55,418 nucleotides of DNA from Nitrospinota bacterium (GTDB lineage: Bacteria; UBA8248; JACPRG01; G963555815): assembly GCA_046758845.1 (NCBI GenBank), contig JBHIBA010000003.1, positions 1 through 55,418 on the forward strand, written 5' to 3'. The position numbers were made by a program, and so were the translations under genes. Below the pieces are notes generated by a model, which ran no database searches, was not told the origin of the DNA, and was given only the letters and a program-made list of their open reading frames with translations. Of this stretch, positions 5,706-20,439 are shown one piece after another. Every line of letters begins with the position of its first letter. Within the stretch, counting starts at the first letter, position 1.

Positions 5706-6580
5706 TTCACGTTCGCTCCCGCATTCCGGAACGCCTCGGTGAGGGCCGACCGCGTCAGTTCCTCAACCAGGTCGCGGCGGAAGTCCGCCGAGGCGTGGAT
5801 GTCATCGTCCGGCTCGGCCTGTTCCCGCGCCAGCCTGGACGCCTCGCCGACGAGATGCGCCGAGGGCTTTCGCCCCATCAGGCAATCACACGCTTGCCGG
5901 GCCTTGATCGCCGCCGGCCCGACGCCCATCAGGGCCACACCAGCGTGCGTGCAAACGCCGTCCGCCAACGTCACGAGCGCCGCCGATCCCGCAATGGCAA
6001 AGTCGCCGCTGCGGCGCGCGAATTCCCGGAGGGCAAAACCCGAGCCGGGCGGGTGGATCGGAATCCGGAATCCGGAGAGCAGGTCGGTCGGCTCAAGGAG
6101 CGTCGTGAGGTAGGTGACGAAGAAATCCTCAGCCGCCTCTTCGCGGACTTCGCCCGCCGGGTTTCGGATCAGAACTTTTGCGTCGAGGGCGATAAGGGCC
6201 GCGGGGACCTCGCCCGCCGGGTCGTTGTGGGCGGCTCCCCCTCCGATGGTGCTCCGGTTTCGGATCTGGGCGTGGCCGATGCAGGAAGAGGCCAGCGCCA
6301 GCAATCCACATTTTTCCCGGACCAGCGGGGACTCCTCAAGGTCCCGGTCGCGGGTCATGGCCCCGATCTCCAGCCATTCCTCCCGCTGCCGGATGTGGGT
6401 CAACTCCTCCACCCGGTTCAGGTCGATCAGCGCAGCCGGCCGGACGAGCCGAAAGTTCATAAGGGGGATCAGGCTCTGGCCGCCCGCCAGGAGTTTCCCT
6501 CCCTCCCCGTGCTCGCGCAGGAGGTCCATCGTTTCCTCAACGGTCCGGGGATCGAAGTAATCGAAGGCGACCGGTTTCAT
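5702..6580 (-). CDS. Mo-hydroxylase FAD-binding subunit, CoxM/CutM family
   Basis: LAGGQSL, QIRNRSTIGG, HNDPAGE, RRSGDFA, DDIHASADFR; 4-bp overlaps with both neighbours. Confidence 0.95.
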   Translation of the reverse strand: MKPVAFDYFDPRTVEETMDLLREHGEGGKLLAGGQSLIPLMNFRLVRPAALIDLNRVEELTHIRQREEWLEIGAMTRDRDLEESPLVREKCGLLALASSCIGHAQIRNRSTIGGGAAHNDPAGEVPAALIALDAKVLIRNPAGEVREEAAEDFFVTYLTTLLEPTDLLSGFRIPIHPPGSGFALREFARRSGDFAIAGSAALVTLADGVCTHAGVALMGVGPAAIKARQACDCLMGRKPSAHLVGEASRLAREQAEPDDDIHASADFRRDLVEELTRSALTEAFRNAGANVK

Positions 6581-8925
6581 GGACTCTCCCTCCGCCTTCG
6601 TTGGAGGAGTTTGTGGAGCGCCCTCGGGCTGAGGGGGATCGAGTCGATCTCCACACCGAACTCAGACAGCGCATCCTCCACAGCTTGGGCGATGACGGTG
6701 GGCACCGGGATCGTTCCCCCCTCGCCGCAGCCCTTGACCCCGAGCGGGTTATTCGGCGAGGGGGTGGTGACGTGGTGGATTTCGGCTTCGGGAACCTCCG
6801 CGGCCGTGGGAACGCAGTAGTCCATCAGGCTCGCGGTCAGCAGCGCTCCGCTGTGCTCATCGTGCACGAGTTTTTCGTAGAAAGCGCCGCCGATTCCCTG
6901 GGCCAATCCCCCCCGCACCTGGCCTTCCACGATCATGGGGTTGATCATCTTTCCGCAATCGTGGACGACGACGTATTTCAGCACGCGAATGTCGCACAGG
7001 GCAGGATTGACCTCGACGATCGCAGCGTGCGTCCCGCTGGAGAAGGAGGCTGTCCGGGGAACGTGGAACTCCGTCGCCTCGAGGCCGGGCACGAAGTGGG
7101 AGGGGAGATTTCCGCGCAGCGGATTCGCCAGACGGGCCATCTCCGAAAAGGTGAGGCTCCTGGAAGGCGCGCCTTTGACGAATACCTTCCCATCCTTGAA
7201 CTCGAGGTTTTCGGCGCCGACCTCCAGGGCCTCAGACGCCAGCTTCCCCATCGTCTCCCGGACCTTCAGGGCCGCGTTGTGGATCGCTGTGCCCGCGACG
7301 ACGGCCGTTCTGGAGGCGTAGTTGCCGACCCCCCAGTGGAACTTGTCGGTGTCGCCGGTCGCAACGCGGATGCGCTTCGGGTCGATGCCGAGAACCTCTG
7401 CGGCGATCTGGGCGAAGGTGGTTTCGGCCCCTTGGCCAGTGGCACCGCTCCCGGTCCCCACGAAGACGTCTCCGGTGGGTTCCACGTAGACCTTGGCGCC
7501 TTCGTACGGGCCTATGCCGGTCCCCTCTACGTAATTGGCGATTCCGATCCCGACGTAGCGTCCCTCTTTCCGGTAGGAGGCCTTGCCCGATTTGCGGAAC
7601 GACTCGTAGCCGATTTTCTCCGCGGCGGTGCGCTGACAGGCGGGGTAATTCCCGCTGTCGTAGATGACGTCCGACGTGTCCTGATAGATCATCTGAACGT
7701 CCCAGGGGAACTCGTCCGGCTGGATCAGGTTCTTGGCCCGCAATTCCAGCGGGTCCATGTCGAGGGCCCTTGTGGCCGCGTCGAAGAGCCGCTCCATGAC
7801 GAAGACGGCCTGGGGGCGTCCCGCGCCCCGGTAAGGGGTCACGGTGATCCGGTTCGTGTAGACCGCCCGCAGGCGGGACCGATAGTTACGAAGGCGGTAA
7901 GGCCCGGGCAGGGTCGTGGACGTCACGATGCCCACGATCAGCCCGTAGGGGACGTAAGCCCCCGCATCCAGGAGGAATTCGTCCTTGACGCCGAGGAGAG
8001 TCCCGTCCTTCGCGAAGGCGATCTCGGCGTCGTGAACCTGGACCCGCTCCTGTGTGCTCGCGAGGAAGTGTTCCCGCCGGTCTTCGATCCACCTGAGGGG
8101 GCAACCCAGGCGAATCGAGCAGTAAGGAATGAGGATCTCTTCGGGGTAGAAGATAATCGCCTTGGGGCCGAAGCCGCCGCCCACGTCCGGCGCGATCAGG
8201 CGGACGTCGTGTTCGGGCAAACCGAGAATTTGGGCCAGCCCGGCCCGGAGGGGGACCGGCGCCTGCGTGGAATCGTAAACGGTGAGCTTGCCGTCCCTCG
8301 CGTCCCACTGGGCCAGGACCCCTCGCCCCTCCATCGCAATGGACGCCCCGCGGTCAATCACGAAGCGCTTTCGGATGACCACATCGGCTTCGGCGAAGGC
8401 CTTATCGGGATCGCCGACGGTTTGGACGAAGTCGGCTGCAACGTTGGTTCCCGTCCCCTCGTGGACAAGGGGGCCGCCCGCTGCCGCCGCCTCGACGTCC
8501 GTCACCGGGGGCAGGGGTTCGTAGTCAACCCGGATGAGTTCGAGAGCATCCTCCGCGGTGTAGCGATCCGCGGCGACCACGACGGCGACCGGCTCTCCTT
8601 CGTAGCGGGTCTTGCCGGCGGCCAGCGGGGAAGGGGTCTTGGGGTCCTTCAAGGAAGGGTGGGGGACCAGAAGGGGGAGCGGGCCGGCCAGATCGCCGAG
8701 GTCGCCGGCCGCCAACACCAGTCGGACGCCGTCGAGAGATCGGGCGGCCTGCGTCTCGATAGAGCGAATTCGTGCGTGGACGTGTGGACTTCGCAGGATA
8801 GCCGCGTGTAGACAGCCGGGCGGCTGGTAGTCGTCCACGTACCGTCCAGTGCCCGTAAGAAGGCGGGAATCTTCAAACCGAGGCTGGCTTTCCCCGAAAT
8901 AGCCCCTCGTCGTTGGACCCGTCAT
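6577..8925 (-). CDS. Mo-hydroxylase large subunit, CoxL-like (form II type, not a form I CO dehydrogenase)
   Basis: VGGGFGPK, active-site loop PYRGAGR (form I CODH has AYXCSFR), GQG, HDCGKMINP, KGCGEGG. Confidence 0.93.
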   Translation of the reverse strand: MTGPTTRGYFGESQPRFEDSRLLTGTGRYVDDYQPPGCLHAAILRSPHVHARIRSIETQAARSLDGVRLVLAAGDLGDLAGPLPLLVPHPSLKDPKTPSPLAAGKTRYEGEPVAVVVAADRYTAEDALELIRVDYEPLPPVTDVEAAAAGGPLVHEGTGTNVAADFVQTVGDPDKAFAEADVVIRKRFVIDRGASIAMEGRGVLAQWDARDGKLTVYDSTQAPVPLRAGLAQILGLPEHDVRLIAPDVGGGFGPKAIIFYPEEILIPYCSIRLGCPLRWIEDRREHFLASTQERVQVHDAEIAFAKDGTLLGVKDEFLLDAGAYVPYGLIVGIVTSTTLPGPYRLRNYRSRLRAVYTNRITVTPYRGAGRPQAVFVMERLFDAATRALDMDPLELRAKNLIQPDEFPWDVQMIYQDTSDVIYDSGNYPACQRTAAEKIGYESFRKSGKASYRKEGRYVGIGIANYVEGTGIGPYEGAKVYVEPTGDVFVGTGSGATGQGAETTFAQIAAEVLGIDPKRIRVATGDTDKFHWGVGNYASRTAVVAGTAIHNAALKVRETMGKLASEALEVGAENLEFKDGKVFVKGAPSRSLTFSEMARLANPLRGNLPSHFVPGLEATEFHVPRTASFSSGTHAAIVEVNPALCDIRVLKYVVVHDCGKMINPMIVEGQVRGGLAQGIGGAFYEKLVHDEHSGALLTASLMDYCVPTAAEVPEAEIHHVTTPSPNNPLGVKGCGEGGTIPVPTVIAQAVEDALSEFGVEIDSIPLSPRALHKLLQRRRRESP

Positions 8926-9383
8926 TCATTGCACCTCTACGCCATCTCAGTGCAGCCCTTCCCGATTCCAGAATTCGGCGATGGCGACCGTCTCCTCGGC
9001 AGGGAGGACGCTGCTGACGGGAAATAGTGGCGGCATTCAGGTTGTGAGTTTCAGGCTCGGCGGTGAAGGAGGCAAATCAACAACATAATAAAGAATAATC
9101 TAAGATTTTGCTATGAATTTGGAGCTGAAAGGGGGATTTCTAAGGTTATGCCACTCGTGAAGCTGCGGAGACGAATCACAGATAGCTTATCGAAATCTAT
9201 TTGCTCATGAAAGAAAACGCGTATACGGTCTTGTTTCCCTGGAGCAATGACCACATCCCGCCAGAAACCTTTTCTCCATCTATGCTCCATGGCGGCGCCT
9301 CCTTTCCCCCAGGTACCCCCAGGGTCTGGTTGAACACCAGGAAGGGTACACCGCCTTTTCCCTTTTTACACACCTTTAAATGC

Positions 9384-9431
9384 TACCCCCCCCAGGTTTG
9401 GTTCAATTGCTCTTAGGGCGTCCAGAACCTC
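9384..9431. repeat. 48-bp diverged repeat, second copy at 23996..24043
   Basis: 42/48 identical by manual alignment (core aggtttggttcaaYtgcYcttagRgcRtccagaacctc). Confidence 0.85.
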
Positions 9432-9461
9432 GATGCGATTTTGACGTGGCCCCCCCAAACT

Positions 9462-9680
9462 TCACCGCCGCCCCCGCCGCCTTTCCTGCATCGCTTTCGC
9501 GCGGGCCGAGAGCGCGGCGGCCTCCTCCCTCTTTCCGAGCTTCACGTAGAGCCCCGCTAGGTTGTTCAGGGTCTTGACGATGTTCGGGTGGTCTGGCCCT
9601 AGGGCTTTCTCTCTGATGGCCAGGGAGCGTTGCACCAAGGGAATCGCCTCCGCATACTGGTTGTTCTGGCCTCCGGTCAA
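9462..9680 (-). pseudogene. TPR protein fragment (kinesin light chain-like TPR)
   Basis: YAEAIPLVQRSLAIREKALGPDHPNIVKTLNNLAGLY is a typical TPR_10/12 unit; only ~1.5 repeats remain and there is no convincing start. Confidence 0.75.
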
Positions 9681-9761
9681 AACCCTGCCTTCATACCGAT
9701 CGCAAGCTGCGCTCTCGTCTTACACTCCTAGCGGTGAAAGTAGGAAGGAAACTGGGAGAAA

Positions 9762-11483
9762 TCAATCGGTCGAAGGGTTTGCCCCAGACAGGTGCGTGGT
9801 TGACGGTGGGGTTTGGGAATCCGCGCGTGTCCGTAATGTCCCGGCTTCGGTGAGTTGGAGCAGTTCGTGCAAGACGGCGCCTACGTCTTCGTTCACCGTC
9901 ACGTCGGCGTAGCGGTCATGGGCGGTGGGGGTGGCGTTGACGATGGCGATGGGGATGCCGGCGTCTCGGGCCCAAAGCAGCAGATCGGAGGCGGGGGCGA
10001 CTTCGAGCGAGGTGCCCAGGACGAGCAGGAGATCGGAGCTGAGGAGCGCCTGGACGGCCGCCTCAAGACGCTTTGGCTCCACCTCCTCGCCGAACATCAG
10101 GCCCCCTCCTTTCAGGAGCCCCTGACACCGGTCGCAATGAAGCGCCGCCGCCCCGTTGGTCATTCGGGTGGAGAGCGCCTCTCGGGAGACCTTCTGGCCG
10201 CAGTCCACGCACTGCGCTTCATGAATCGTGCCGTGCAGCTCGATCACCGCCTCGGTCGCAAGCCCGGCCGCCTGATGGAGGCCGTCCACGTTCTGCGTCA
10301 CCACGGCGGACAGGCGGCCCTGCCGATACAGAGCCGCGAGGGCCCGGTGGGTGATGGTCGGGCAGGCGCCCCGGAGCAGTCGGAAGAATTTCTCCTCCTC
10401 ACGCCAGTAGGCCTCCCGGACTTCGGGCGAAGTCAGGAATTTTTCGAAATTGATCTGACCGGTATCGGCCCAAAAGCCGGGCTGACCCCGGAAGTCCGGC
10501 AGACCGGCCGCCGTGCTCACCCCAGCGCCGGTCAGCACACAGATGCGCCGGGCCTTGCGGACCCGGTCGTGAAGGCGGCGGCGGGCAAGCCACTCCGCTC
10601 GCACCTCCTCGGGCCGCCCCACTCTGTTGAAAGGAAGGGGCGAGGGGCGCCCGGGTATCAGCCTACGGAATGCCGACAGATGCAAGGCGCCCAGGAGGCC
10701 TACAGTGACCAGGTTGAAAGGCGCAACGAGGAGGGGAGCCTCCGAGGGGCCGAGCACCGCAGAGGCCCCCCACCACAAAACCCCGGCGGCCGCCGCCCCG
10801 GAGGCAGCCACCCCGGCCGCTGGGCCCGACCACGGGAGGAACACCGCCGCCAACGCCATCGCCGTGGGCACGCTGTTGAACAGGAGGCCCGCCTCGATCC
10901 CCCCGCTCAGGAGAGCGCTCAGGCCGAGGCCGACCCCCGCGCCCACGAGCGCCGCGAGCGTTAAGAGCCTGGAGTGAACGGCCAGGCCGGCGAGGATCAG
11001 ACCCAGGCCCACAAGCTGGGTGGCATCGCCGACAGGATGGGTCGACTCGGCGGGTCCCAAAAAGGGCCAGGCGAGCCAGATGAGGCAGAGCGCAGGCAAT
11101 GCCAGCGTTGGAATCTCACGGGGCGTCAGGATGCGGTGCAACAGGTAGGTCAGCGGCGCCGAAGCGGCGGCCGCGGCGGCTAACGCGATCCCCGTTCCCA
11201 CCCCCGGAGAGAACAACACCCCCCAGAAAAGCCCGCAAAGGACCCCTGCGTAGCCGTAGAGGCCGGCTCGCCATGCCCCGGATGGATACCCCAGCGCCCG
11301 GGCCACCAGCGTGGCCACCCCCCCGCTCACGGCACCCGCCAAACCTACGGCGGGGACGATGAGGGTGAAGCCGAGAAAGAGCAACAGACCGCCGAGGGGA
11401 GATTCACAGAAGAGAACCTGGCCGTAACCCGACGCCCACGCTCGCCCAACCTCGAGGGCTCGCCGCAGCGCCCGCACGATCAC
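9762..11483 (-). CDS. urea-transporter-like membrane domain fused to a SIR2/CobB sirtuin domain
   Basis: N-half is hydrophobic with UT signatures (GYGQVLF..SPLGGLL, GLYGYAG, FNS, PLLVAPF). C-half has GAGVSTAAGLPDFRG, TQNVDGLH, ELHG, CVDC...CDRC, FGE, GTSL. One uninterrupted ORF. Confidence 0.88.
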   Translation of the reverse strand: MIVRALRRALEVGRAWASGYGQVLFCESPLGGLLLFLGFTLIVPAVGLAGAVSGGVATLVARALGYPSGAWRAGLYGYAGVLCGLFWGVLFSPGVGTGIALAAAAAASAPLTYLLHRILTPREIPTLALPALCLIWLAWPFLGPAESTHPVGDATQLVGLGLILAGLAVHSRLLTLAALVGAGVGLGLSALLSGGIEAGLLFNSVPTAMALAAVFLPWSGPAAGVAASGAAAAGVLWWGASAVLGPSEAPLLVAPFNLVTVGLLGALHLSAFRRLIPGRPSPLPFNRVGRPEEVRAEWLARRRLHDRVRKARRICVLTGAGVSTAAGLPDFRGQPGFWADTGQINFEKFLTSPEVREAYWREEEKFFRLLRGACPTITHRALAALYRQGRLSAVVTQNVDGLHQAAGLATEAVIELHGTIHEAQCVDCGQKVSREALSTRMTNGAAALHCDRCQGLLKGGGLMFGEEVEPKRLEAAVQALLSSDLLLVLGTSLEVAPASDLLLWARDAGIPIAIVNATPTAHDRYADVTVNEDVGAVLHELLQLTEAGTLRTRADSQTPPSTTHLSGANPSTD

Positions 11484-12889
11484 CGCCCTTTCGCAACCGC
11501 CCGCCGAGTGGGCGCGGGAAGCCGGTCGCGGCCCACGAAGTCCTCCACCCCCTCACTCTCGCGGACGACTTCCGCCCCTCCCTCTGAGACCCAAACCGCG
11601 GGCGGTCGCGGCTGGATGAACTGGATGGACTGGGAGTTTGTGTAAGCGCCGCAGTTCTTCACCGCCAGATGGCTGCCGCGGTGCAGCGGCGGCAAAAGGA
11701 GCCCCGCCCCCACACAGTCCACCTGCATGCAAAGGGGGCCGAAGAGGGTGACCTCCTCCACAGAGAGCGGGCTGGGCTCGGTGGGCGCGATGTCCAGGGC
11801 GCTGTAGTACGCGGTGGGAAGCAGGTTGACGCCCGCGTCCAGGATCGCCGCCTTGGCTCCGCACGGAAGACGCTTCACGGCCGTCACACTCGTCAGCAGG
11901 AACACCGCGTGCTCGACCACCGCCCGTCCCGGCTCCAGGAGGAGGCGGGGGCGACTGCGGAGGCGGCGGAGAGCGGAAGTGAGGGGACGGACAATGGCCT
12001 GTGCAAAAGAGGGGAACACTTCCTCCACATCGACGCCGGGGCGCAAGGCCGCGTAGCGGTGACGGTTCGGAAAACCCCCGCCCAGGTCCAGCACCTGCCA
12101 GCGGACGCGGTGGCGCCGCTCCAGCCTGTCCATCAAAGGAAGCAGGAGCTTCAGCAGGTCCCGGAAGACCCCGGGGTCGGGAAGGTCCGTGCCGAGATGG
12201 ACGTGCAGCGCCCCCAGCCGAACGGAGCGGGAGGCGATCAGGCGCCGGCACGCCTCCTCCGCCAGCCCCGCCTCCAGGCTGAAGCCGAACTTGCCCCAAG
12301 GGGCGCTCGTCACCGCAGCGGTCACGCGGATGCCCACCGTGGGGACCTTCCCCTCCTCGCACGCAACTTCCTCCAGCAGGGAAAGCTCATCGAAGTTGTC
12401 CAAGTTAATCAGGGCCCCGTCGTGAACTGCGCGGCGCAGGTCCTCCTGGGACTTGCCGGGTCCGTTGAAGATAACCCGGCTCCCCGGCACGCCCAGGCGC
12501 CGGGCCATCTCGTACTCGAGGCCGGAGACCACCTCGGCCCACGCCCCCTCCTCATGAAGGAGGGCGCGGACGGCAGAAAGATAATTCGTCTTGTACGAGT
12601 ACGCCACGTCCGTTTTGGGGTAGAGCGCCCGGAAGGCCCGGCGGAAATCCCGAAACTCCTGCCGCAGGCGCGCCTCCGAGACCACGAAGAGGGGGGAGCC
12701 GAATTGATGAATCAGCGCCCCCACCTCGCACCCATCAATCTGTTCCACCACCGCAGTCGGTACCAGAGGGGCCCGGGTGTTGAGGCCGACGCGAGGATGC
12801 TTGCTCACCTGCCCAAAGGCTTGGCGGGTGAGGGCCATCGGTTCGTACGGCCGGCGGCCCCGACCGTTAGAGGAGAGGTTACGTGACAT
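11480..12889 (-). CDS. fold-type III PLP-dependent decarboxylase (diaminopimelate/ornithine decarboxylase family)
   Basis: YSYKTN (PLP Lys), FNGPGK, KFG, HVHLGT, LDLGGGF, EPGR, GPLCMQVD, GAY. Confidence 0.9.
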   Translation of the reverse strand: MSRNLSSNGRGRRPYEPMALTRQAFGQVSKHPRVGLNTRAPLVPTAVVEQIDGCEVGALIHQFGSPLFVVSEARLRQEFRDFRRAFRALYPKTDVAYSYKTNYLSAVRALLHEEGAWAEVVSGLEYEMARRLGVPGSRVIFNGPGKSQEDLRRAVHDGALINLDNFDELSLLEEVACEEGKVPTVGIRVTAAVTSAPWGKFGFSLEAGLAEEACRRLIASRSVRLGALHVHLGTDLPDPGVFRDLLKLLLPLMDRLERRHRVRWQVLDLGGGFPNRHRYAALRPGVDVEEVFPSFAQAIVRPLTSALRRLRSRPRLLLEPGRAVVEHAVFLLTSVTAVKRLPCGAKAAILDAGVNLLPTAYYSALDIAPTEPSPLSVEEVTLFGPLCMQVDCVGAGLLLPPLHRGSHLAVKNCGAYTNSQSIQFIQPRPPAVWVSEGGAEVVRESEGVEDFVGRDRLPAPTRRAVAKGR

Positions 12890-15017
12890 CGCCGTTCACC
12901 TTCCCGTTCACTGCGAGTTCTCCCATCCGCTCCACAGGCGCGGTGGCGTCCCACGCCATGCGGACGTAGAAGGTCCCCCGGCGGGGGGTGAGCGGGGAAA
13001 CCCGCTCGCCCCGCGCCAGCCGGACCGCCGCCCAGGGGAGGTTGGCCCCCGCCCCCGCCGACAGGTAAACCCAGCTGGGAAAGCGCGGGTTGACCTCGAT
13101 CAGGAACAGGCCGCGCCGCGGATGGCGAATCACCTCCAGCTCGAAAGGCCCCACCCATTTCAGCGCCTTGGTGAACCGCTCCGCCAGCGCGCGGAATTCC
13201 CGGCCCGCCACCACCGTGCCCCCCCAGGTGTTGCCGTTGGGGGTGCGGATGTCCTTGCGCTGCGCCACCGACCCGACGATCCGGTGGCGGCGGTCCGCGA
13301 CGGCGGCAATCCCGAACTCCTCTCCCTCGATGCGCTCCTGCGCGATGAGGGGAAAGCCCCATCTCTCGGCCAGGCGCCTCGCGATGACGCGCGCCTCCTC
13401 CTCGGTCCATACTGCCCGCGCATCGGCAGTGAGCCCTTTGAGGAAAAAGGGCGCGCCCAGTCTCTTTCCCGCCCGAGTCAGATCTTCGAACCCTCCGATG
13501 GTCTCCATCCGGGGAAGGGGGAACCCCTCGGCCGCTAGCTCTGGAAGACGCGGTTTCGTCGTGGCGCTCAGCGATCCTAGCGAGGGAATCAGGGTGGAAA
13601 CACCCGCGGCGGACAGGCGCGAAGCCAGCCGCGCTACGAGAGGCACCTCCACGTCCAGCGTGGGAATCAGGCAGTCCACGCCCGCCTCCCGGCACTGATC
13701 GATCAGGGCCTCCGGATAACCCCCCTCCTCCTGCGAGGGGAAGGGCAGAAGGCGCACCTCGTCCCAGATTCCGTCGACGTAGATGCCCGAGGAAAGGATT
13801 TCGTGGGTCAGGCCGATGAGCCGGGGCGGCGTCGAAACGGCCCGCAGGGCGCGGGCGACCGTGAGTCCCGGAGAGGGGTTGTCCGCCGCGTTCAGGCCGG
13901 TGATGGCCACCGTCCCCGGCTTCGGCGATCGGGGGGGGGGGCGCGAGCCGGTGCGAAGCGGTGGCGCGCCGTTTCCGGCCCGAGGGGGGCAGGGCCTCAC
14001 CTGTCCTTCCTTCAGGGTCTTCATGGGATTTTTGGCGAAGACCTGCTCCACGACCGCCCGCCCAAAAAACAGGCCGGGACTCGCCCGCAACTCCTCGACC
14101 CTCCCGCCCGTGGCGAGACGCACCAGCGCCGCGGGCAGGTTGGCCCCGGCTTCGGCCGCCAGCGCGATCCACGACGGGAAGCGGGGGTTGACCTCGATGC
14201 AGTAAGTGCTCCCGTCCGCCTGGCGGATGAACTCGATCTCTATCGCGCCCTCCCACCGCAGTGAACGAACGAGCCGTCGGGCTTTCTCGACGAGCTCCGG
14301 CTCCCCCACCGTCACCCCCGCCCAGGCAGTGCCCTTATTGGTCACCGAGAGCTTTTTCATCACAGCCACCCCCACCAACTCTCCGCGCCGGGCGACTGCC
14401 GCGACGTCGTATTCCTCGCCCGGGATCACCGGCTGGGAAAGAAGCGGGTACCCCCATTCAGCCGCCAGCTCCCCCGCCGCCACCCGAAAGTCCTCGGCCG
14501 AGTGGACCATAGCCGAATGTGCCAGAGCCGCCTTGAGCATCTGAGGATAGCGGAGCTTGATGGAGGCGCGATCCACGCTCTTGACCGACGGCAGCACCAG
14601 CGTCTCCGGGACCGCCGCACCCTCCCTGCGCCCCAGGGACGGAAGCCGCCGCTTCTCCCGGGCCCGAAGGGCGGAGGCCGTGGGCAGACACGTGGAGACG
14701 CCCAGTCGCCTCAGCTCCTTCTGGATGGCCACGTAGTGCGGCAGCTCGGCGTCGAGGGTGGGAATGACGACATGGAGGGGGTGCCGCCCCACGAAAGCGC
14801 GATACCAATCCAAAAGAGCCGGGCCCTCCCGACGGGGGATGAGCGCATGGGCGTCGATCAGATCGGTGGCGAAGGCCCCGGTCCCGAAGCGGTCGTCCGT
14901 GAGGGCGAGGACCCGCCACGAGGGCGACCCCCGCCGCAGGGCGCGGATGACGGCCAGCCCGGGATGAGGGTTGTCCGTGGCGTAAAAGCCGGTCACTCCG
15001 ATCCAGAGCTCACTCAT
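12879..15017 (-). CDS. tandem double ATP-grasp ligase
   Basis: Two homologous halves, each with TG...DNP.PGL, IPTLD.E, T.WxG and IEVNPRFPSW. Start placed at ATG 15017, overlapping the PqqD stop. Confidence 0.88.
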   Translation of the reverse strand: MSELWIGVTGFYATDNPHPGLAVIRALRRGSPSWRVLALTDDRFGTGAFATDLIDAHALIPRREGPALLDWYRAFVGRHPLHVVIPTLDAELPHYVAIQKELRRLGVSTCLPTASALRAREKRRLPSLGRREGAAVPETLVLPSVKSVDRASIKLRYPQMLKAALAHSAMVHSAEDFRVAAGELAAEWGYPLLSQPVIPGEEYDVAAVARRGELVGVAVMKKLSVTNKGTAWAGVTVGEPELVEKARRLVRSLRWEGAIEIEFIRQADGSTYCIEVNPRFPSWIALAAEAGANLPAALVRLATGGRVEELRASPGLFFGRAVVEQVFAKNPMKTLKEGQVRPCPPRAGNGAPPLRTGSRPPPRSPKPGTVAITGLNAADNPSPGLTVARALRAVSTPPRLIGLTHEILSSGIYVDGIWDEVRLLPFPSQEEGGYPEALIDQCREAGVDCLIPTLDVEVPLVARLASRLSAAGVSTLIPSLGSLSATTKPRLPELAAEGFPLPRMETIGGFEDLTRAGKRLGAPFFLKGLTADARAVWTEEEARVIARRLAERWGFPLIAQERIEGEEFGIAAVADRRHRIVGSVAQRKDIRTPNGNTWGGTVVAGREFRALAERFTKALKWVGPFELEVIRHPRRGLFLIEVNPRFPSWVYLSAGAGANLPWAAVRLARGERVSPLTPRRGTFYVRMAWDATAPVERMGELAVNGKVNGDVT

Positions 15018-15297
15018 CGACCTCTGCCAGACCTTCCTCGACCAGCTGTGCCGTGAAGCGGGCAAAATCCCGGCGGGCGGTCGGGGCGTCGACGTCAAAC
15101 GCTTTGACGACGGCCGCGATCACCTTCGGCAGCAACGCGCCCTCCTGGATACAGGACGCCGCGACGGCGCCGCTTGCGTTCAGCGAATAGACCTTCCCCG
15201 TCCGCTGGTCGAACAGAAAGCCGCGCTCCGCCCCGACGCGCACCTGGACGGAGGAGGCGAAGCGGATGTTTTTGGGGATTCGAGGGACGGAGCTCAC
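15010..15297 (-). CDS. PqqD family protein / RiPP recognition element (95 aa)
   Basis: C-terminal part of the listed ORF 15010..16113. GTG 15297 overlaps the TPR gene stop (GTGA). GFLFDQRTGKVYSLNASG and FDVDAPTARRDFARFTAQLVEEGL fit the PqqD pattern. Confidence 0.88.
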   Translation of the reverse strand: MSSVPRIPKNIRFASSVQVRVGAERGFLFDQRTGKVYSLNASGAVAASCIQEGALLPKVIAAVVKAFDVDAPTARRDFARFTAQLVEEGLAEVDE

Positions 15298-16664
15298 TGG
15301 ACCCGCTTTCCCAGCGCCTTGAGACCATTCAAGGCGTCCGCGTAACCGGACCTCGCCTTCAGGCTGCGCCGGAAGGCATGCTCGGCTGCCGCCCGGTCGC
15401 CGAGCTTGAGCAAAGTCCACCCGAGACCACTCCAGGGGTCCGCCCACTCTGGGTAGCGCTTGGTGACCCGCCGGAATCCCCGAAGTGCGGGACGGAATTT
15501 TCCAGTGAAATAGTAGCTCCACGCGAGGCTTGAAGCCGCGTCGCTCATGATCGTGTGAAGCCCAAAGGCCCCCGGGATCTCGATCTGCTCTCGAATGGGG
15601 GGAAGCGCAGCGTTTGAGGCCAGGGCACGCTTCAGGGGGGGAATCGACTCCCGATACCGCTTGAGGGAATACAGGCTGTACCCCAACCCCCGCAGGCCGT
15701 CCGGGTCGTTCGGGTGACGCGCCAAAAGCGCCCGGAATTCCGCCTCGGCCTTGGCGAAAGCCCGCTGGTGGAACAGGGCCCAGCCGAGGTCCCGCCAGAG
15801 GTCGATCCACTCGGGGCGCCCGGCGAGGAGTTTTCGGAATTCGGGTTTTGCGACAAAGGCCGCCGATTTCTGCATGGCGGCGCGGAAGCCCGCTTTCGCC
15901 TCGGCCGGCCGCCCCTGCTTCTCGGCGATCCATGCGAGCCCCAGGGGCGGAGCGGCCCATGCGGGCTCGCGTCGGGCGACCTCCTGGAAGGTCCGGGACG
16001 CCTGGGCATGTTCCCCTTTGTAGTAATGGGCCCATCCCAGGGTTGAGCGGGCGAGTGAGTCTCTCTCGTCCCGCCGGAGGGCGTCGCGGAGCCGGTCGAT
16101 GGCCTCTTGCCAATCGCCGCGGCCGTACGCAACAAACCCCAGGCCCCGCGTCGCGTCCAGGTTGCCCGGGGCGCTCGCCAGGGCGGCCTTGAAGTTCGCG
16201 GCAGCCCGGATGAGGTCGCCTTTCCCGAGGTAACTCCAGCCGAGGCCGCTGTGGGCGTTGTGGTATCCCGGCTTGATCCTGAGGGATTCGGCGAATGCGG
16301 CCAGGGCGCGGTCGTAATGGTTGCCTTTATAGGCGATCCACCCCAGCCCCTCGTGGGCGTAGAAAGCGTTGGGATCGTTCGGGTCTATGCGGAGGGCGCG
16401 CTCGAACTCCTCCTTGGCCCGGATCAGGTCTCCCTTCTTGTAAAGGCTCCACCCGAGAAGGTTCCGGATACGGCCCGTGTCTTTTCCCCGGCGGATGGCC
16501 TCCTCGAGGCGGGCAATGGCCGTATCGTACTGCTGGCTCTCGAAGGCTTCGACGGCGAGAGAAAAGTCGTTCTCCGCTGCAATTTGCGCCGCCAAGGCGC
16601 ACCCACCGACAGCGGTGCCTAACACGAAGAGAACGGTTTGAATGACCAGCGGCCTGAGCTTCAT
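15294..16664 (-). CDS. exported multi-TPR protein
   Basis: N-terminal hydrophobic signal (possible lipobox VGGC) followed by about ten TPR units with a recurring LGW motif. Confidence 0.9.
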   Translation of the reverse strand: MKLRPLVIQTVLFVLGTAVGGCALAAQIAAENDFSLAVEAFESQQYDTAIARLEEAIRRGKDTGRIRNLLGWSLYKKGDLIRAKEEFERALRIDPNDPNAFYAHEGLGWIAYKGNHYDRALAAFAESLRIKPGYHNAHSGLGWSYLGKGDLIRAAANFKAALASAPGNLDATRGLGFVAYGRGDWQEAIDRLRDALRRDERDSLARSTLGWAHYYKGEHAQASRTFQEVARREPAWAAPPLGLAWIAEKQGRPAEAKAGFRAAMQKSAAFVAKPEFRKLLAGRPEWIDLWRDLGWALFHQRAFAKAEAEFRALLARHPNDPDGLRGLGYSLYSLKRYRESIPPLKRALASNAALPPIREQIEIPGAFGLHTIMSDAASSLAWSYYFTGKFRPALRGFRRVTKRYPEWADPWSGLGWTLLKLGDRAAAEHAFRRSLKARSGYADALNGLKALGKRVQ

Positions 16665-16841: not shown

Positions 16842-17243
16842 CTATCCCCGGCACTCGGTTGTCGCCATTGCCACGGTAGACCCATCTGTAGCAGCCTTTA
16901 CCTCGGCGAGGACTCTCTCTCCGCCGGCCGCAAAGTCGTCAGCGATGCTTGAATCGGCGTCGTCAGGGTCGGCGGTGCTGTCGAAGTCCAAATCCACGTC
17001 AGGCCTCAGAGCCGTGGCCTCGACGTCCTTCCCCGGCTCAGTCGCCGCCATTGCTGGCGTATCCAGATTCGTGACCTTCGCTGTGTAGAGACCCGGAGCC
17101 AGATCCCGTCCGTCGATTTGGACTCTGACTCGATCGTCCCTGACCCGACACCTGGCGCGCGCGCTCGCCGCCTGCGCCTCCAAGGACATGGCCAGGAACA
17201 CCCCCAAACAACACAGTATAGTCAAGACCCTCGATCCCTTCAT
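16842..17243 (-). CDS. small secreted hypothetical protein (133 aa)
   Basis: Strong RBS (GAGGAGGAG), signal peptide ending AQA, two Cys in the mature part (RARCRV, TTECRG). Confidence 0.8.
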   Translation of the reverse strand: MKGSRVLTILCCLGVFLAMSLEAQAASARARCRVRDDRVRVQIDGRDLAPGLYTAKVTNLDTPAMAATEPGKDVEATALRPDVDLDFDSTADPDDADSSIADDFAAGGERVLAEVKAATDGSTVAMATTECRG

Positions 17244-17305: not shown

Positions 17306-17321
17306 TGCAATGCCGGTGCCA
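17306..17321 (-). promoter_or_regulatory. sigma54 (-24/-12) promoter
   Basis: Minus strand TGGCAC-CGGCA-TTGCA, an exact consensus ~60 bp upstream of the 17243 start; an NtrC-type activator is encoded divergently. Confidence 0.88.
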
Positions 17322-17593: not shown

Positions 17594-19042
17594 ATGGGGC
17601 GCATCACAATCGGCAGGGCTTCTTTGACCCGCAAGTTCGCTCTTCTGAGCCTGGTCACGATTGGATTCATCACCGCGGTACAGGTGAGCGTCCAGTGGCT
17701 TCTGTTCCGTGAGGACCTCCTGGACAGGGAGCGCACGAGCACGGCCAGTATCATCCGCGCGGGGGCCTATGCGATGCTGCAGCCGGAGGACTTCTCGCGT
17801 TGGCGGAGCAAAGAGGCTCAGGAGCGATTCGAGCGCTTCTTCCGCCGTGCCTTGCTAAACCCTGAAATTCTCCGGGTGAAAGTGTTCGATACCCAGACGC
17901 GGGTCGTCTGGTCGGACGAACCCCCGCTCCTTGGCGCTCGCTTCTCCAAGAATGCCAGCCTGACACAGGCCCTTCAGGGCCAGACGGTCGCACGCCTGCA
18001 TACGGTGAAGAGATCTGAGAAACTCTACGAACAGAACTTTCGCAAGACCATAGAACTGTATATTCCGCTCGCGTTTTCCAGCGGCCAGACCCCTGGTATG
18101 GCCACCGTCGCAGGCGTGGTTGAGGTCTACAAGAGTCCGGCCCGGGTTCTGGCCGCCATCTCGCGTGGCCGGGTGATGATCATTTCCACCTCGTTGGCCG
18201 GCGCCGTCCTCCTCTATGCAACCCTTTTCGGCGTCGTCCACCGCGCCTCACGCCAGCTCCAGGCCCAGCGGGATGATCTTGAACGTCAGACGACGGCTCT
18301 CATCGCCGCCAACCGAGATTTGCAGACCACCCAACAACGACTCAGGACGGCAGAGCGGCTGGCTACCCTTGGAGAAGTCAGTGCCATGGTGGCCCATGGA
18401 ATCCGCAATCCGCTCGCCAATATCCGCGCCTCGGCCCAGGTGGCTCTCGGTTCGCCGAACCAGGCCAGCTCCATCGAGAGGTCTCTCCTCACGATCACGG
18501 GGGAGGTGGACCGGCTGGACCATTGGCTTCGGGCTTTGCTCGACGTCGTTCGCCCTCTGGAGCCCCGGCTGGCCCTGGTGGAGCTAAACGCTGTGATTGA
18601 AGACCTTCTTTCCCTCCTGGCTGAACGCTGCGCCGAGCGCCGGGTCCGCTTGGAGCGATATCTACTCCCCGACCCTCCGGCGATCATGGCCGACGAAGTC
18701 CAGTTGCAGCAGGCGCTCCTCGGGGTCTTGGAAAACGCGCTCGATGCGATGCCTCAGGACGGCACACTGACGGTCCGGACCGAACGCGCGGAGGCTGAAG
18801 GGCGCGCTGCCGTCCGGGTGGCGATCCGGGATACGGGGGAAGGGATCCCGACCGGACGACTCAAGCAGATCTTCGAACCCTTCTATTCTACCAAGAGCAA
18901 GGGAACGGGCCTCGGCCTCGCCATCACCCGGAAGGTGGTTGAGGCCCATGAGGGGCACATCGAGATCGAGAGCGAACCCGATGTGGGGACCACGGTCAAG
19001 ATCACGCTCCCGGTGGGGGATCCGTTGCAGGAGGCGGCATGA
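17594..19042 (+). CDS. membrane sensor histidine kinase
   Basis: Two TM helices around a periplasmic domain; H-box AHGIRNPL, ENALDA, DTGEGI, FEPFYSTK, GTGLGL. Confidence 0.93.
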   Translation: MGRITIGRASLTRKFALLSLVTIGFITAVQVSVQWLLFREDLLDRERTSTASIIRAGAYAMLQPEDFSRWRSKEAQERFERFFRRALLNPEILRVKVFDTQTRVVWSDEPPLLGARFSKNASLTQALQGQTVARLHTVKRSEKLYEQNFRKTIELYIPLAFSSGQTPGMATVAGVVEVYKSPARVLAAISRGRVMIISTSLAGAVLLYATLFGVVHRASRQLQAQRDDLERQTTALIAANRDLQTTQQRLRTAERLATLGEVSAMVAHGIRNPLANIRASAQVALGSPNQASSIERSLLTITGEVDRLDHWLRALLDVVRPLEPRLALVELNAVIEDLLSLLAERCAERRVRLERYLLPDPPAIMADEVQLQQALLGVLENALDAMPQDGTLTVRTERAEAEGRAAVRVAIRDTGEGIPTGRLKQIFEPFYSTKSKGTGLGLAITRKVVEAHEGHIEIESEPDVGTTVKITLPVGDPLQEAA

Positions 19043-20439
19043 TCCCGTCGGTTTTGATCGTCGAAGACGAGAAGATCCTGGCCGAGGCCATGGGAGAGTA
19101 CCTGGCCAGGCACAGCTACGAACCGGCGGTCGTCAGGACGGGGGAGGAGGGATTCCAGCGGATGCAGGAGTTGGAGATGGACCTGGTTGTCCTGGACTAC
19201 AAGCTCCCCGGCATGGATGGACTGGAGACCCTCCGTCAGATCAAGCAGATTGCTCCCGGCGCGGAGGTTATCGTGGTCACCGCCCACGGGACCGTGAAAA
19301 CCGCTGTGGAGGCCATGCGGACCGGCGCCTTCGACTATCTCACGAAGCCCGTGGACTTAGAGGAATTGGCCGTCGTCCTGGACAAGGCGTGGAAACATGC
19401 CCGCCTGCGGCGCGAGCTCCGCTACTGGCAGGACGCTGGCCGCCGCAGTGACCCTCGGGCCCGCATTGTCGGAGACTCTGAAGCAACCCGCCAGCTCCGG
19501 ACGCAGGTCGAGCGTCTGGCAGCGCTGGAGCCCGCGCCGGCCCTTCTGATCACAGGAGAGACTGGAACGGGCAAGGGGCTCATCGCCCGCACGATCCACG
19601 ACCTGAGTCCGCGCGCCGCCCGCCCGTTCGTTGAGATGAACTGCGCCGCCATCCCGGCTCAGCTCCTGGAGTCGGAGATCTTCGGGTATGAGCGAGGCGC
19701 CTTCACCGATGCCCGCACACCCAAGGCCGGCCTCTTCGAATCGGCCGACGGGGCTACGCTCTTTCTCGACGAGATTGCTGCGATGCCCATCGAGCTTCAG
19801 GTCAAGCTCTTGAAAGTCATTGAGGAGAAGTCGGTGCGCCGGCTGGGCGGGCTTCGCCCAAAGGTCGTGGATGTCCGGATCATTGCTGCTACAAACACCG
19901 ACTTGGAAGAGGCCGTGGGGAGTGGGAAGTTCCGGGCCGACCTTTTTTACCGACTCAAGGTCCTAACCATCGCTCTATCACCGCTTCGCGAGCACCCGGA
20001 GGACATCTTGCCTTTGGCGCGCCACTACCTGGCAGAGGCCGAGCGTCAGTACCAGCGGCCGAAATGCCTGCACCCGGACGCCGAGGCCCGGCTCCTCAGT
20101 TACCCGTGGCCTGGCAACATTCGGGAGCTGATTAACCTCTTCGAACGGGTTGTCCTCCTCCTGGAGGGTGAAGAGATCAGGAGCGAGGACCTTGGGCTCG
20201 GAGGGGTGGCCCGCCGCAGTGGGTCGGTCGAAATAGACAGCGGCGGCGTGCGGGTTGACCTTTCCCGGGGCAACGTGAGTTTGGCCCAGCTCGAACGGAC
20301 ATTGATCGCCGAGGCCCTCAAGATAGCCGGCGGCAATCGGCGCCGCGCCGCAGAGCTTCTCGATATCTCCCCGGAGACGCTACGCTACCGGGTTGAGAAG
20401 TACGGCCTTATGCCCGGCGGAGGCAAGGACCCCCGCTAG
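19039..20439 (+). CDS. NtrC-family sigma54-dependent response regulator
   Basis: Receiver domain (VEDE, LDYKLP), GETGTGK, GAFTDA loop, FLDEI, WPGNIREL, C-terminal Fis-type HTH. Confidence 0.95.
   Translation: MIPSVLIVEDEKILAEAMGEYLARHSYEPAVVRTGEEGFQRMQELEMDLVVLDYKLPGMDGLETLRQIKQIAPGAEVIVVTAHGTVKTAVEAMRTGAFDYLTKPVDLEELAVVLDKAWKHARLRRELRYWQDAGRRSDPRARIVGDSEATRQLRTQVERLAALEPAPALLITGETGTGKGLIARTIHDLSPRAARPFVEMNCAAIPAQLLESEIFGYERGAFTDARTPKAGLFESADGATLFLDEIAAMPIELQVKLLKVIEEKSVRRLGGLRPKVVDVRIIAATNTDLEEAVGSGKFRADLFYRLKVLTIALSPLREHPEDILPLARHYLAEAERQYQRPKCLHPDAEARLLSYPWPGNIRELINLFERVVLLLEGEEIRSEDLGLGGVARRSGSVEIDSGGVRVDLSRGNVSLAQLERTLIAEALKIAGGNRRRAAELLDISPETLRYRVEKYGLMPGGGKDPR

Follow-up and report, generated by a model that had tools for sequence, protein, structure and literature searches.

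A urea transporter-fold membrane domain fused to an intact sirtuin ends a conserved operon that points to an undescribed pathway at the cell membrane

Urea transporters (UTs), such as DvUT (structures 3k3f/3k3g) and UT-B/UT-A (SLC14), are built from ten transmembrane (TM) helices in an inverted two-fold repeat, with two re-entrant pore helices (Pa and Pb) and a selectivity-filter threonine in each of two LPxxTxPF motifs (the Sm site); the N- and C-termini of canonical UTs are both cytoplasmic. Sirtuins, represented by Sir2Tm (1yc5), Sir2Af2 (1yc2) and CobB, cleave N-acyl-lysine amides with NAD, while ATP-grasp enzymes form amide bonds. In butirosin biosynthesis BtrI/BtrJ/BtrK serve a carrier-bound small-molecule pathway. 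The pearlin/TglA scaffold peptides and 3-thiaglutamate belong to a scaffold-peptide pathway (PMC9016710). Here we describe a gene that joins the UT and sirtuin folds in one chain. It lies in a 55,418-nucleotide stretch of DNA from a Nitrospinota bacterium (contig JBHIBA010000003.1, assembly GCA_046758845.1; hereafter the window), where this UT::Sir2 fusion gene (9762..11483, minus strand) starts with GTG and encodes 573 aa. Judged from its sequence, it is the last gene of a translationally coupled operon that also encodes a secreted tetratricopeptide repeat (TPR) protein, a PqqD-like protein, a double ATP-grasp ligase and a pyridoxal phosphate (PLP)-dependent decarboxylase. That this operon recurs in several phyla suggests a pathway, so far undescribed, with its end at the cell membrane.

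An earlier note on this DNA had read the frame as a UT-like channel fused to an apparently intact sirtuin. Translation, Pfam matches and structure models confirm one 573-aa open reading frame (ORF) with a UT N-half and a sirtuin C-half, and all the motifs that were quoted (GLYGYA, PTLALP, PLLVAPF, the NAD loop, QNVD, HG and both CxxC pairs) are present in the translation. The gene callers of the collection use a second GTG two codons downstream, which gives 571 aa (P0001). The Pfam matches of both halves are far beyond chance: the UT family (PF03253) is matched with an E-value of 1.5e-32 and 113.4 bits (cut-off 25) and the SIR2 family (PF02146) with an E-value of 5.1e-41 and 141 bits (cut-off 24). 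AlphaFold2 (AF2) modelling of the whole chain from a 30-row alignment gave a mean confidence (pLDDT) of 88.5 and a predicted template modelling score (pTM) of 0.81. The two halves are joined by an Arg-rich juxtamembrane linker (residues 274–299; 10587..10664, minus strand) with a conserved PGRPxPLP...PE motif, in which P277, G278, P280 and P284 are invariant or nearly so.

The assembly that contains the window is fragmented, with 598 contigs, and such a chain might come from an assembly chimera or from two genes joined into a pseudo-fusion by a frameshift. The chance of an artefact of this kind is nevertheless close to nil. A 1822-nt contig from a public sequencing run (X1, 9700–10971), a run that may be the source sample, crosses the junction near nucleotide 10600 without difference. 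A search over 5.8 billion proteins gave 248 clusters with E ≤ 0.001, and 76 of the best 120 carry both domains in the same single ORF; the architecture also stands on 39 other loci from other, independent assemblies. The linker is conserved and confidently modelled, and both halves are under purifying selection: the ratio of nonsynonymous to synonymous substitution (dN/dS, Nei–Gojobori) is 0.19–0.41 for the UT half and 0.09–0.24 for the sirtuin half in seven pairs from the clade nearest to the window (80–96% aa identity), with both halves below 0.25 in six of the seven and the UT half at 0.41 in the closest pair. Recurrence, the junction contig, the conserved linker and dN/dS thus refute the chimera and pseudo-fusion readings. 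With them falls each of the three grounds on which the earlier note would have given up the fusion, namely a chimeric junction, an N-half that matches no UT and a singleton under relaxed selection.

The fusion is widespread. Besides the window's own cluster, 61 of those 76 are 47–66% identical to it over the full length, and a representative library held more fusion clusters at 31–40% identity. The remark that no fusion of this kind had been described therefore stands in one respect and not in another: we found no description of a UT::Sir2 fusion or operon in a literature search that had subscription journals and supplements outside its reach, and the architecture is common in sequence databases, where it is automatically named "urea transporter" or "NAD-dependent deacetylase". 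The main text of a 2026 survey of UT architectures contains neither SIR2 nor sirtuin nor deacetylase (PMC12998343). The 39 loci form four clades: 16 in the near clade (one Methylomirabilota metagenome-assembled genome (MAG) and 15 metagenome contigs), 12 in the proteobacterial-type clade A3 (ten from proteobacterial MAGs of the alpha, beta and gamma classes, two from g5, a genus of low GC in the window's own class), one in a GNAT clade (a UT-Sir2-GNAT triple fusion) and ten in the Planctomycetota clade g3 (the ten best of 11 fusion-holding genomes among 401 sampled Planctomycetota genomes). In all 39 the gene directly before the fusion is a decarboxylase orthologue; the earlier note passed over this constant setting, which is the strongest clue. 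Loci whose sequence extends far enough also have genes for ATP-grasp and TPR proteins, and in the Planctomycetota the ATP-grasp enzyme is encoded by two separate genes that alternate with TPR genes. We found the PqqD-like ORF in the window, in 9 near-clade loci, in 11/11 A3 loci and in 8 of the 9 g3 loci with sequence there, a count that leaves out L109 and near-clade loci lacking that stretch; PF05402 scores 34 bits in the L122 orthologue and 39.8 bits in that of L207.

As a query, the window protein alone found no relative in the genome contigs, and the full-length alignment, used as sirtuin-motif patterns only, returned stand-alone sirtuins only. Within the window's phylum the UT-half search found the window's genome (G000) only; it missed genus g5, whose divergent A3-type fusion surfaced via an ATP-grasp query. 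A search for UT-half proteins of 165–525 aa gave none at E ≤ 1e-5 among 8000 word-sharing candidates, which hydrophobic words crowd, so unfused forms may exist. L227, at first taken for a partial fusion, was rejected as a stand-alone sirtuin behind an AI-2E transporter.

In the window all five genes lie on the minus strand. The TPR protein (15294..16664; 456 aa) matches Pfam TPR families and has, by eye, an N-terminal signal peptide and a lipobox-like VGGC. The start of the 95-aa PqqD-like peptide chaperone (RRE; 15010..15297; PF05402, 42 bits against a cut-off of 23.4) overlaps the TPR stop; NCBIfam lasso PqqD models match it below their cut-offs, and it is absent from the mechanical ORF list, where it is masked by a frame at 15010..16113 and by the TTG start listed for the ATP-grasp gene at 15098. 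The latter gene (12879..15098) encodes two ATP-grasp halves recognised by Pfam and NCBIfam. Its true start is probably the ATG at 15017, because relatives align from residue 13–28 on and a frame begun at the TTG would overlap the PqqD-like ORF. Directly before the fusion comes a fold-III PLP decarboxylase of the Orn/DAP/Arg type (11480..12889; 469 aa; Pfam, NCBIfam), whose stop overlaps the fusion start in a shared GTGA. Its nearest solved relative is the N-citrylornithine decarboxylase FslC (7kh2, E 9.8e-48), and BtrK is also matched. None of the fusion, decarboxylase, ATP-grasp, TPR and PqqD-like ORFs has an NCBIfam model above its cut-off, and no curated family covers the fusion or its operon partners. 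Signal peptides were seen by eye on the TPR proteins with clear starts (window, L104, L107, L122, L125, L127, L303, L306 and L307); the module therefore spans the cytoplasm, with its enzymes, and the periplasm, and the UT domain is its sole integral-membrane part. No outer-membrane barrel gene was seen at the UT::Sir2 operon. A complex prediction of the fusion (1–548) with the decarboxylase (40–469) scored 0.00 in two runs, for which controls were not folded.

The UT half (residues 1–273; 10665..11483, minus strand) was modelled by AF2 with pLDDT mostly above 90 and comprises one pore helix and ten TM helices: a re-entrant pore helix (within helix 2–24, GYGQVLF), five TM helices, an 11-residue loop (142–152) and five further TM helices. 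Modelled alone, it superimposes on DvUT (3k3f/3k3g) with a VIA Z of 28.6 and a root mean square deviation (rmsd) of 3.3 Å, with 272/300 residues aligned. Across DvUT, UT-B and UT-A the Z values are 27.5–28.6 over 266–272 residues at 20–24% identity, and Foldseek TMq values are 0.73–0.75. The next fold matches are Amt/Rh channels, with Z about 12. Thus the sequence homology, the ten-helix fold with its inverted two-fold repeat and a first pore helix with Gln and Phe (G19-Y-G-Q-V-L-F25; 11409..11429, minus strand) are shared with DvUT and SLC14, Q22 and F25 being invariant in the near clade.

By contrast, the second pore helix of canonical UTs is deleted, and a short loop (residues 142–152; 11028..11060, minus strand) takes its place, so that Pa is the only re-entrant helix. 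Positions 5–139 and 181–289 of the Pfam UT model correspond to residues 17–151 and 161–265 (85.1 and 38.6 bits for the two stretches in the genome search), and nothing corresponds to positions 140–180, the part with the second pore helix. In an hhalign comparison with a canonical 305-aa UT (L312) the query gap falls exactly opposite the template's second pore helix. The suspicion that the second GQV pore helix is missing is thus borne out by two alignments and the AF2 loop. At the Sm site the two filter threonines are replaced by A128 (codon 11100..11102, minus strand; P125-T-L-A-L-P130 in the DvUT alignment) and V253 (codon 10725..10727, minus strand; P250-L-L-V-A-P-F256), A131 replaces the Phe of the first LPxxTxPF motif, and the Asn of the first GLYGFN motif is lost (G74-L-Y-G-Y-A79). 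A cytoplasmic enzyme of 300 residues and a setting without urea metabolism further set the protein apart from DvUT and SLC14.

We compared these positions in 100 fusion proteins from the four clades. In the near clade (n = 62) position 128 is Ala in 61 and position 253 Val in 58, no protein has Asn at position 79, and the connector at the place of the second pore helix measures 15–23 aa. Clade A3 (n = 18) has Ser in 9 and Ala in 8 at position 128, Leu in 13 at position 253, Asn79 in 17 and a connector of 25–26 aa. In the GNAT clade (n = 5) position 128 is Gly in 3 and Ser in 2, and all five keep Thr at 253 and Asn79, with a connector of 40–43 aa. Clade g3 (n = 15) has Ser in 10 and Thr in 3 at position 128, Thr in 11 at position 253, Asn79 in all 15 and a connector of mostly 41–51 aa. 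The ancestral fusion pore seems to have been fairly canonical, with hydrophobicity gained and one helix lost in two of the clades. In UT-B and UT-A2, transport of urea, water and NH3 is abolished when the Thr of the second site is exchanged for Val (PMC12171576).

The proposal in the earlier note of a repurposed channel or membrane anchor is supported, in that the filter changes are fixed across the near clade under purifying selection. Its further suggestion, that solute passage is coupled to NAD-dependent deacylation, may hold. A non-urea pore, or a ligand site with another specificity, fits better than a plain anchor, because the pore-facing residues Q22, F25, N203, P250 and F256, all invariant in the near clade, are kept and the features specific to urea have been lost. 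As a description of what these proteins do, the name "urea transporter" is very probably mistaken. The sirtuin should face the cytoplasm, where NAD is, since the N-terminus and the linker 274–299 are Arg-rich and the termini of canonical UTs are cytoplasmic.

The C-terminal half (residues 300–548; 9840..10586, minus strand) is a canonical sirtuin domain with a Rossmann fold and a zinc ribbon, as identified by Pfam, phmmer and Foldseek. The NAD loop (GAGVSTAAGLPDFRG, 319–333, with GAGVS) is followed by TQNVDGLH (396–403), the catalytic H417-G418 and the zinc pairs C425xxC428 and C450xxC453, with His417 and the four cysteines encoded at 10125..10235 (minus strand). GAGxS, QNVD, the His and the four Cys are invariant in 30/30 near-clade sequences, which bears out the earlier impression of an intact sirtuin, and their equivalents are invariant in the A3 alignment and in a further one (A4). 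A phmmer search matches Sir2Tm (1yc5) end to end (Sir2Tm residues 7–234) with an E-value of 1.5e-36; Foldseek aligns Sir2Af2 (1yc2) over 254 columns with a TMt of 0.87 and an rmsd of 2.7 Å, and target-normalised TM-scores to Sir2Af2 and Sir2Tm are 0.81–0.89. The domain is thus a sirtuin by Pfam score, motifs and fold alike, and with its catalytic motifs intact it is predicted to be an active deacylase. It shares 31–33% identity with Sir2Tm, Sir2Af2 and CobB over the full domain, with the NAD, catalytic and zinc motifs all kept, and differs from them in its membrane tether, its biosynthetic operon and its scores below all NCBIfam CobB/sirtuin equivalog cut-offs (NF001753, 208.7 against 243; NF040867, 200.8 against 320). 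Ahead of the FGE substrate strand the near clade has KGG where Sir2Tm has RPN. One proteobacterial-type fusion of 553 aa, P0280, has its GAG loop, QNVD and catalytic His replaced and keeps both the fusion and the zinc cysteines; it looks like a dead sirtuin retained on a channel.

Three further arrangements involve the sirtuin or its cofactor. In two Sulfuritalea MAGs (L122:9590–10474 and L126:9566–10486) an NAD synthase gene (PF02540) follows UT::Sir2 on the same strand and overlaps its end, a hint that would fit stoichiometric NAD use and real NAD turnover. UT-Sir2-GNAT triple fusions of 700–773 aa (P0064, P0065, P0123, P0124, P0133 and L208:1690–3888) unite an eraser of acyl-lysine marks with an acetyltransferase in a single membrane protein, and in L208 the gene directly before the fusion is once more the decarboxylase. 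In L127 the Comamonadaceae fusion is followed (10403–12363) by a YHYH-family protein and by another Sir2 gene, which stands alone.

Defence systems often contain SIR2 domains fused to other modules, and the protein might accordingly be an NADase anchored in the membrane that uses up NAD when phage infect the cell; one marginal PADLOC match (16 bits, E 0.00098) is of that kind. We consider such a role highly improbable, since the domain is a canonical zinc-ribbon sirtuin with every deacylase motif that matches Sir2Tm from end to end, the five operon proteins have no meaningful PADLOC family score, and the context is conserved and biosynthetic rather than a variable defence island. Also very unlikely, if a shade less so, is that a working urea or ammonia channel and a general CobB-type deacetylase have merely come together among chance neighbours. 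Both domains do belong to well-known families, and the database names say as much. However, both filter threonines and one pore helix are gone, no urease or urea-metabolism gene is conserved near the fusion in the related loci, the same decarboxylase precedes it, with overlapping genes, at every one of the 39 loci across phyla, and the CobB equivalog cut-off (NF040867) is not reached. Moreover, the genome already has two separate, ordinary stand-alone sirtuins.

The UT-half profile also retrieved two proteins, P0279 and P0281, in which the UT domain carries an M23 peptidase. P0281 aligns with the UT profile over columns 13–284 (hhalign probability 97.4), including the PSPLP juxtamembrane motif, which is missing from canonical UTs. 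The 2026 survey counts M23 peptidase with the C-terminal partner domains of bacterial UTs (PMC12998343). These UT::M23 fusions resemble the protein described here in the kind of UT domain, the PSPLP linker motif and a C-terminal amide-cleaving enzyme, and differ in that the enzyme is a metallopeptidase there and an NAD-dependent sirtuin here. By sequence, then, one UT subfamily bears either of two unrelated amide-cleaving enzymes at its cytoplasmic end, and the exchange looks like the swap of a catalytic module with the job kept. A search of the phylum of G464 for an operon around a UT::M23 fusion gave none: the decarboxylase profile found one unrelated polysaccharide-type locus in 251 genomes, PF03253 found four canonical UTs in 151 genomes, the UT-half profile A2 found six stand-alone UTs in 301 genomes and P0279 found no match in 301 genomes.

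The enzymes that precede the fusion have their closest parallels in butirosin, rhizoferrin (FslA/FslC) and pearlin/TglA biosynthesis. There, as here, an ATP-dependent amide ligase is combined with a fold-III decarboxylase and a peptide-binding adaptor, and the decarboxylase acts, or here would act, on an amide-linked amino acid; FslC and BtrK, its nearest solved relatives, have amino acids in amide linkage or bound to a carrier as their substrates. On our proposal the product would likewise be set free by a last amide cleavage. The differences are that no carrier or scaffold peptide was found in the flanks of 15 loci and the window, that release would fall to a sirtuin, and that the last step would take place at a membrane pore with a periplasmic TPR partner. 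The enzyme pair also occurs elsewhere: in L311 (G532:C115:1–3866), from a different phylum, the gene after a related decarboxylase encodes a PylC-like ATP-grasp, and the neighbours are a sugar transferase and a sulfotransferase-like ORF, so that the same pair serves in a polysaccharide-type context without a UT domain.

We propose that the gene encodes an inner-membrane protein, a non-urea UT-fold pore with an intact sirtuin on its cytoplasmic C-terminus, that is the end-station of a peptide-guided pathway which forms amides and decarboxylates. We hold this tentatively, at a little short of an even chance. The operon includes a PqqD-type adaptor, and the substrate would therefore be a peptide, which the PqqD-like chaperone would present to the ligase. 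The ATP-grasp ligase would attach an amino acid via an amide or isopeptide bond, the decarboxylase would trim the attached amino acid, and the second ATP-grasp half could make a second ligation before cleavage at the membrane. At the entrance of the UT-derived pore the membrane-tethered sirtuin would then cut an amide of the N-acyl-lysine type, and the pore would pass or bind a small uncharged product towards the periplasm, the site of the TPR protein. The topology, the substrates, the part of the sirtuin as a releasing or deprotecting amidase and conduction through the pore are what we infer here. A bolder form, in which the sirtuin is a biosynthetic tool, is possible and rather doubtful: the ligase and the decarboxylase would build a small amine or amide on a lysine of a ribosomal scaffold peptide bound by the PqqD-like chaperone, the compound would be released with NAD at the pore mouth and exported to a periplasmic TPR receptor, and UT::Sir2 and UT::M23 would be interchangeable cut-and-export terminals of one widespread and so far undescribed class of envelope-spanning pathways.

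Several points weigh against the end-station proposal. Sirtuins usually act as protein regulators and not as pathway enzymes. The flanks of the module, in 15 related loci and the window, contain no conserved small ORF that might code for a precursor or a scaffold peptide; the small ORFs that are shared there are alternative-frame ORFs of near-identical loci only. The degenerate sirtuin of P0280 implies that not every fusion needs catalysis. The near and A3 clades have a hydrophobic Val or Leu at the very site where Thr-to-Val closes mammalian UTs and lack one pore helix, and their pore may not conduct at all. In a quick Sir2-domain tree the fusion clades fall between two clades of stand-alone sirtuins, and a single origin of the fusion is not established. 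Finally, no operon around a UT::M23 fusion turned up in 301 genomes of the G464 phylum.

The chief rival is a transceptor or regulator, in which a non-conducting UT domain binds a solute or the TPR protein and signals to the sirtuin, which then deacylates the operon enzymes or other cytoplasmic proteins. The customary regulatory role of sirtuins speaks for it, as do the exchange of the filter threonines for Ala and Val/Leu with loss of the second pore helix in the near and A3 clades, the block of flux by Thr-to-Val in mammalian UTs, the whole-chain pTM, which suggests a fixed arrangement of the domains, and the degenerate sirtuin of P0280, which fits a scaffold or sensor role. There is also a solved precedent for a pore turned ligand sensor in the Amt-fold proteins fused to signalling domains (6eu6, "Sensor Amt Protein"; 8qj3/8qj4, "Receptor Sd-Amt1" ON/OFF), which combine a channel fold with a C-terminal cytoplasmic enzyme; at 12–13% identity and a Z of about 12 in the fold lists, and with signalling enzymes as outputs, they offer a comparison of working and not of membership. 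However, the GNAT clade (5/5) and the Planctomycetota (11/15) keep the second Thr and a connector of pore-helix length, which makes conduction look ancestral, and yet they have the same operon. A signalling output is difficult to reconcile with an M23 peptidase in place of Sir2, two loci have an NAD synthase gene as neighbour, and most clades are without an acetyltransferase partner. On balance we consider the transceptor unlikely, although it is a serious alternative to the end-station.

Upstream of the operon, a perfect sigma-54 promoter of the -24/-12 type (TGGCAC-N5-TTGCA; 17306..17321, minus strand) stands 63 nt before the ATG of a 133-aa ORF; it is the sole zero-mismatch site among 19 sigma-54 sites in the window, whose total number is not above chance, and similar sites precede the TPR gene in 7/9 near-clade loci. 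The 133-aa ORF (16842..17243, minus strand), first in the transcription unit, has a clear signal peptide and is specific to the window, without a homologue in 26 related loci or a match to a Pfam family. It was dropped on these grounds as a candidate precursor peptide; either this lineage has added it to the operon, or it is a secreted partner that evolves fast. Divergent from the operon is a two-component pair (17594..20439, plus strand), recognised by domain matches as a membrane histidine kinase (17594–19042) and a sigma-54-dependent response regulator (19039–20439); the pair is syntenic in 7 near-clade loci, and weaker homologues lie downstream in L115.

The contig is native to this genome, because a flanking Mo-hydroxylase gene is 81–82% identical to its orthologues in four genomes of the same family. 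Genomes of that family lack the UT half (0/6) and the ATP-grasp (0/6), and the operon proteins have 64–76% identity to those on the metagenome contigs L106 and L107; the cassette is therefore an accessory island in this genome, probably acquired by transfer. Past the fusion gene, the GC content of 8925–9762 is 51–59%, compared with 65–73% in the operon, and this segment, which holds a 72-aa TPR-like ORF fragment (9462–9680, minus strand) and a terminator-like hairpin (9340–9360, plus strand), may be the edge of the island. Beside it, the gene for a Mo-hydroxylase large subunit (6577–8925) has at least 21 paralogous matches in the genome, and as many in four related genomes, which suggests a very large expansion of the xanthine/CO-dehydrogenase family.

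Should the end-station proposal be correct, sirtuins would gain a non-regulatory role, as a membrane-docked, amide-cleaving step of a metabolic pathway, and the UT fold would be the membrane terminal of a biosynthetic module, with natural variants that bear the substitution known to close mammalian UTs. The five-gene cassette, found on Methylomirabilota-type contigs and in Proteobacteria, Planctomycetota and the window's own phylum, would become a defined target.

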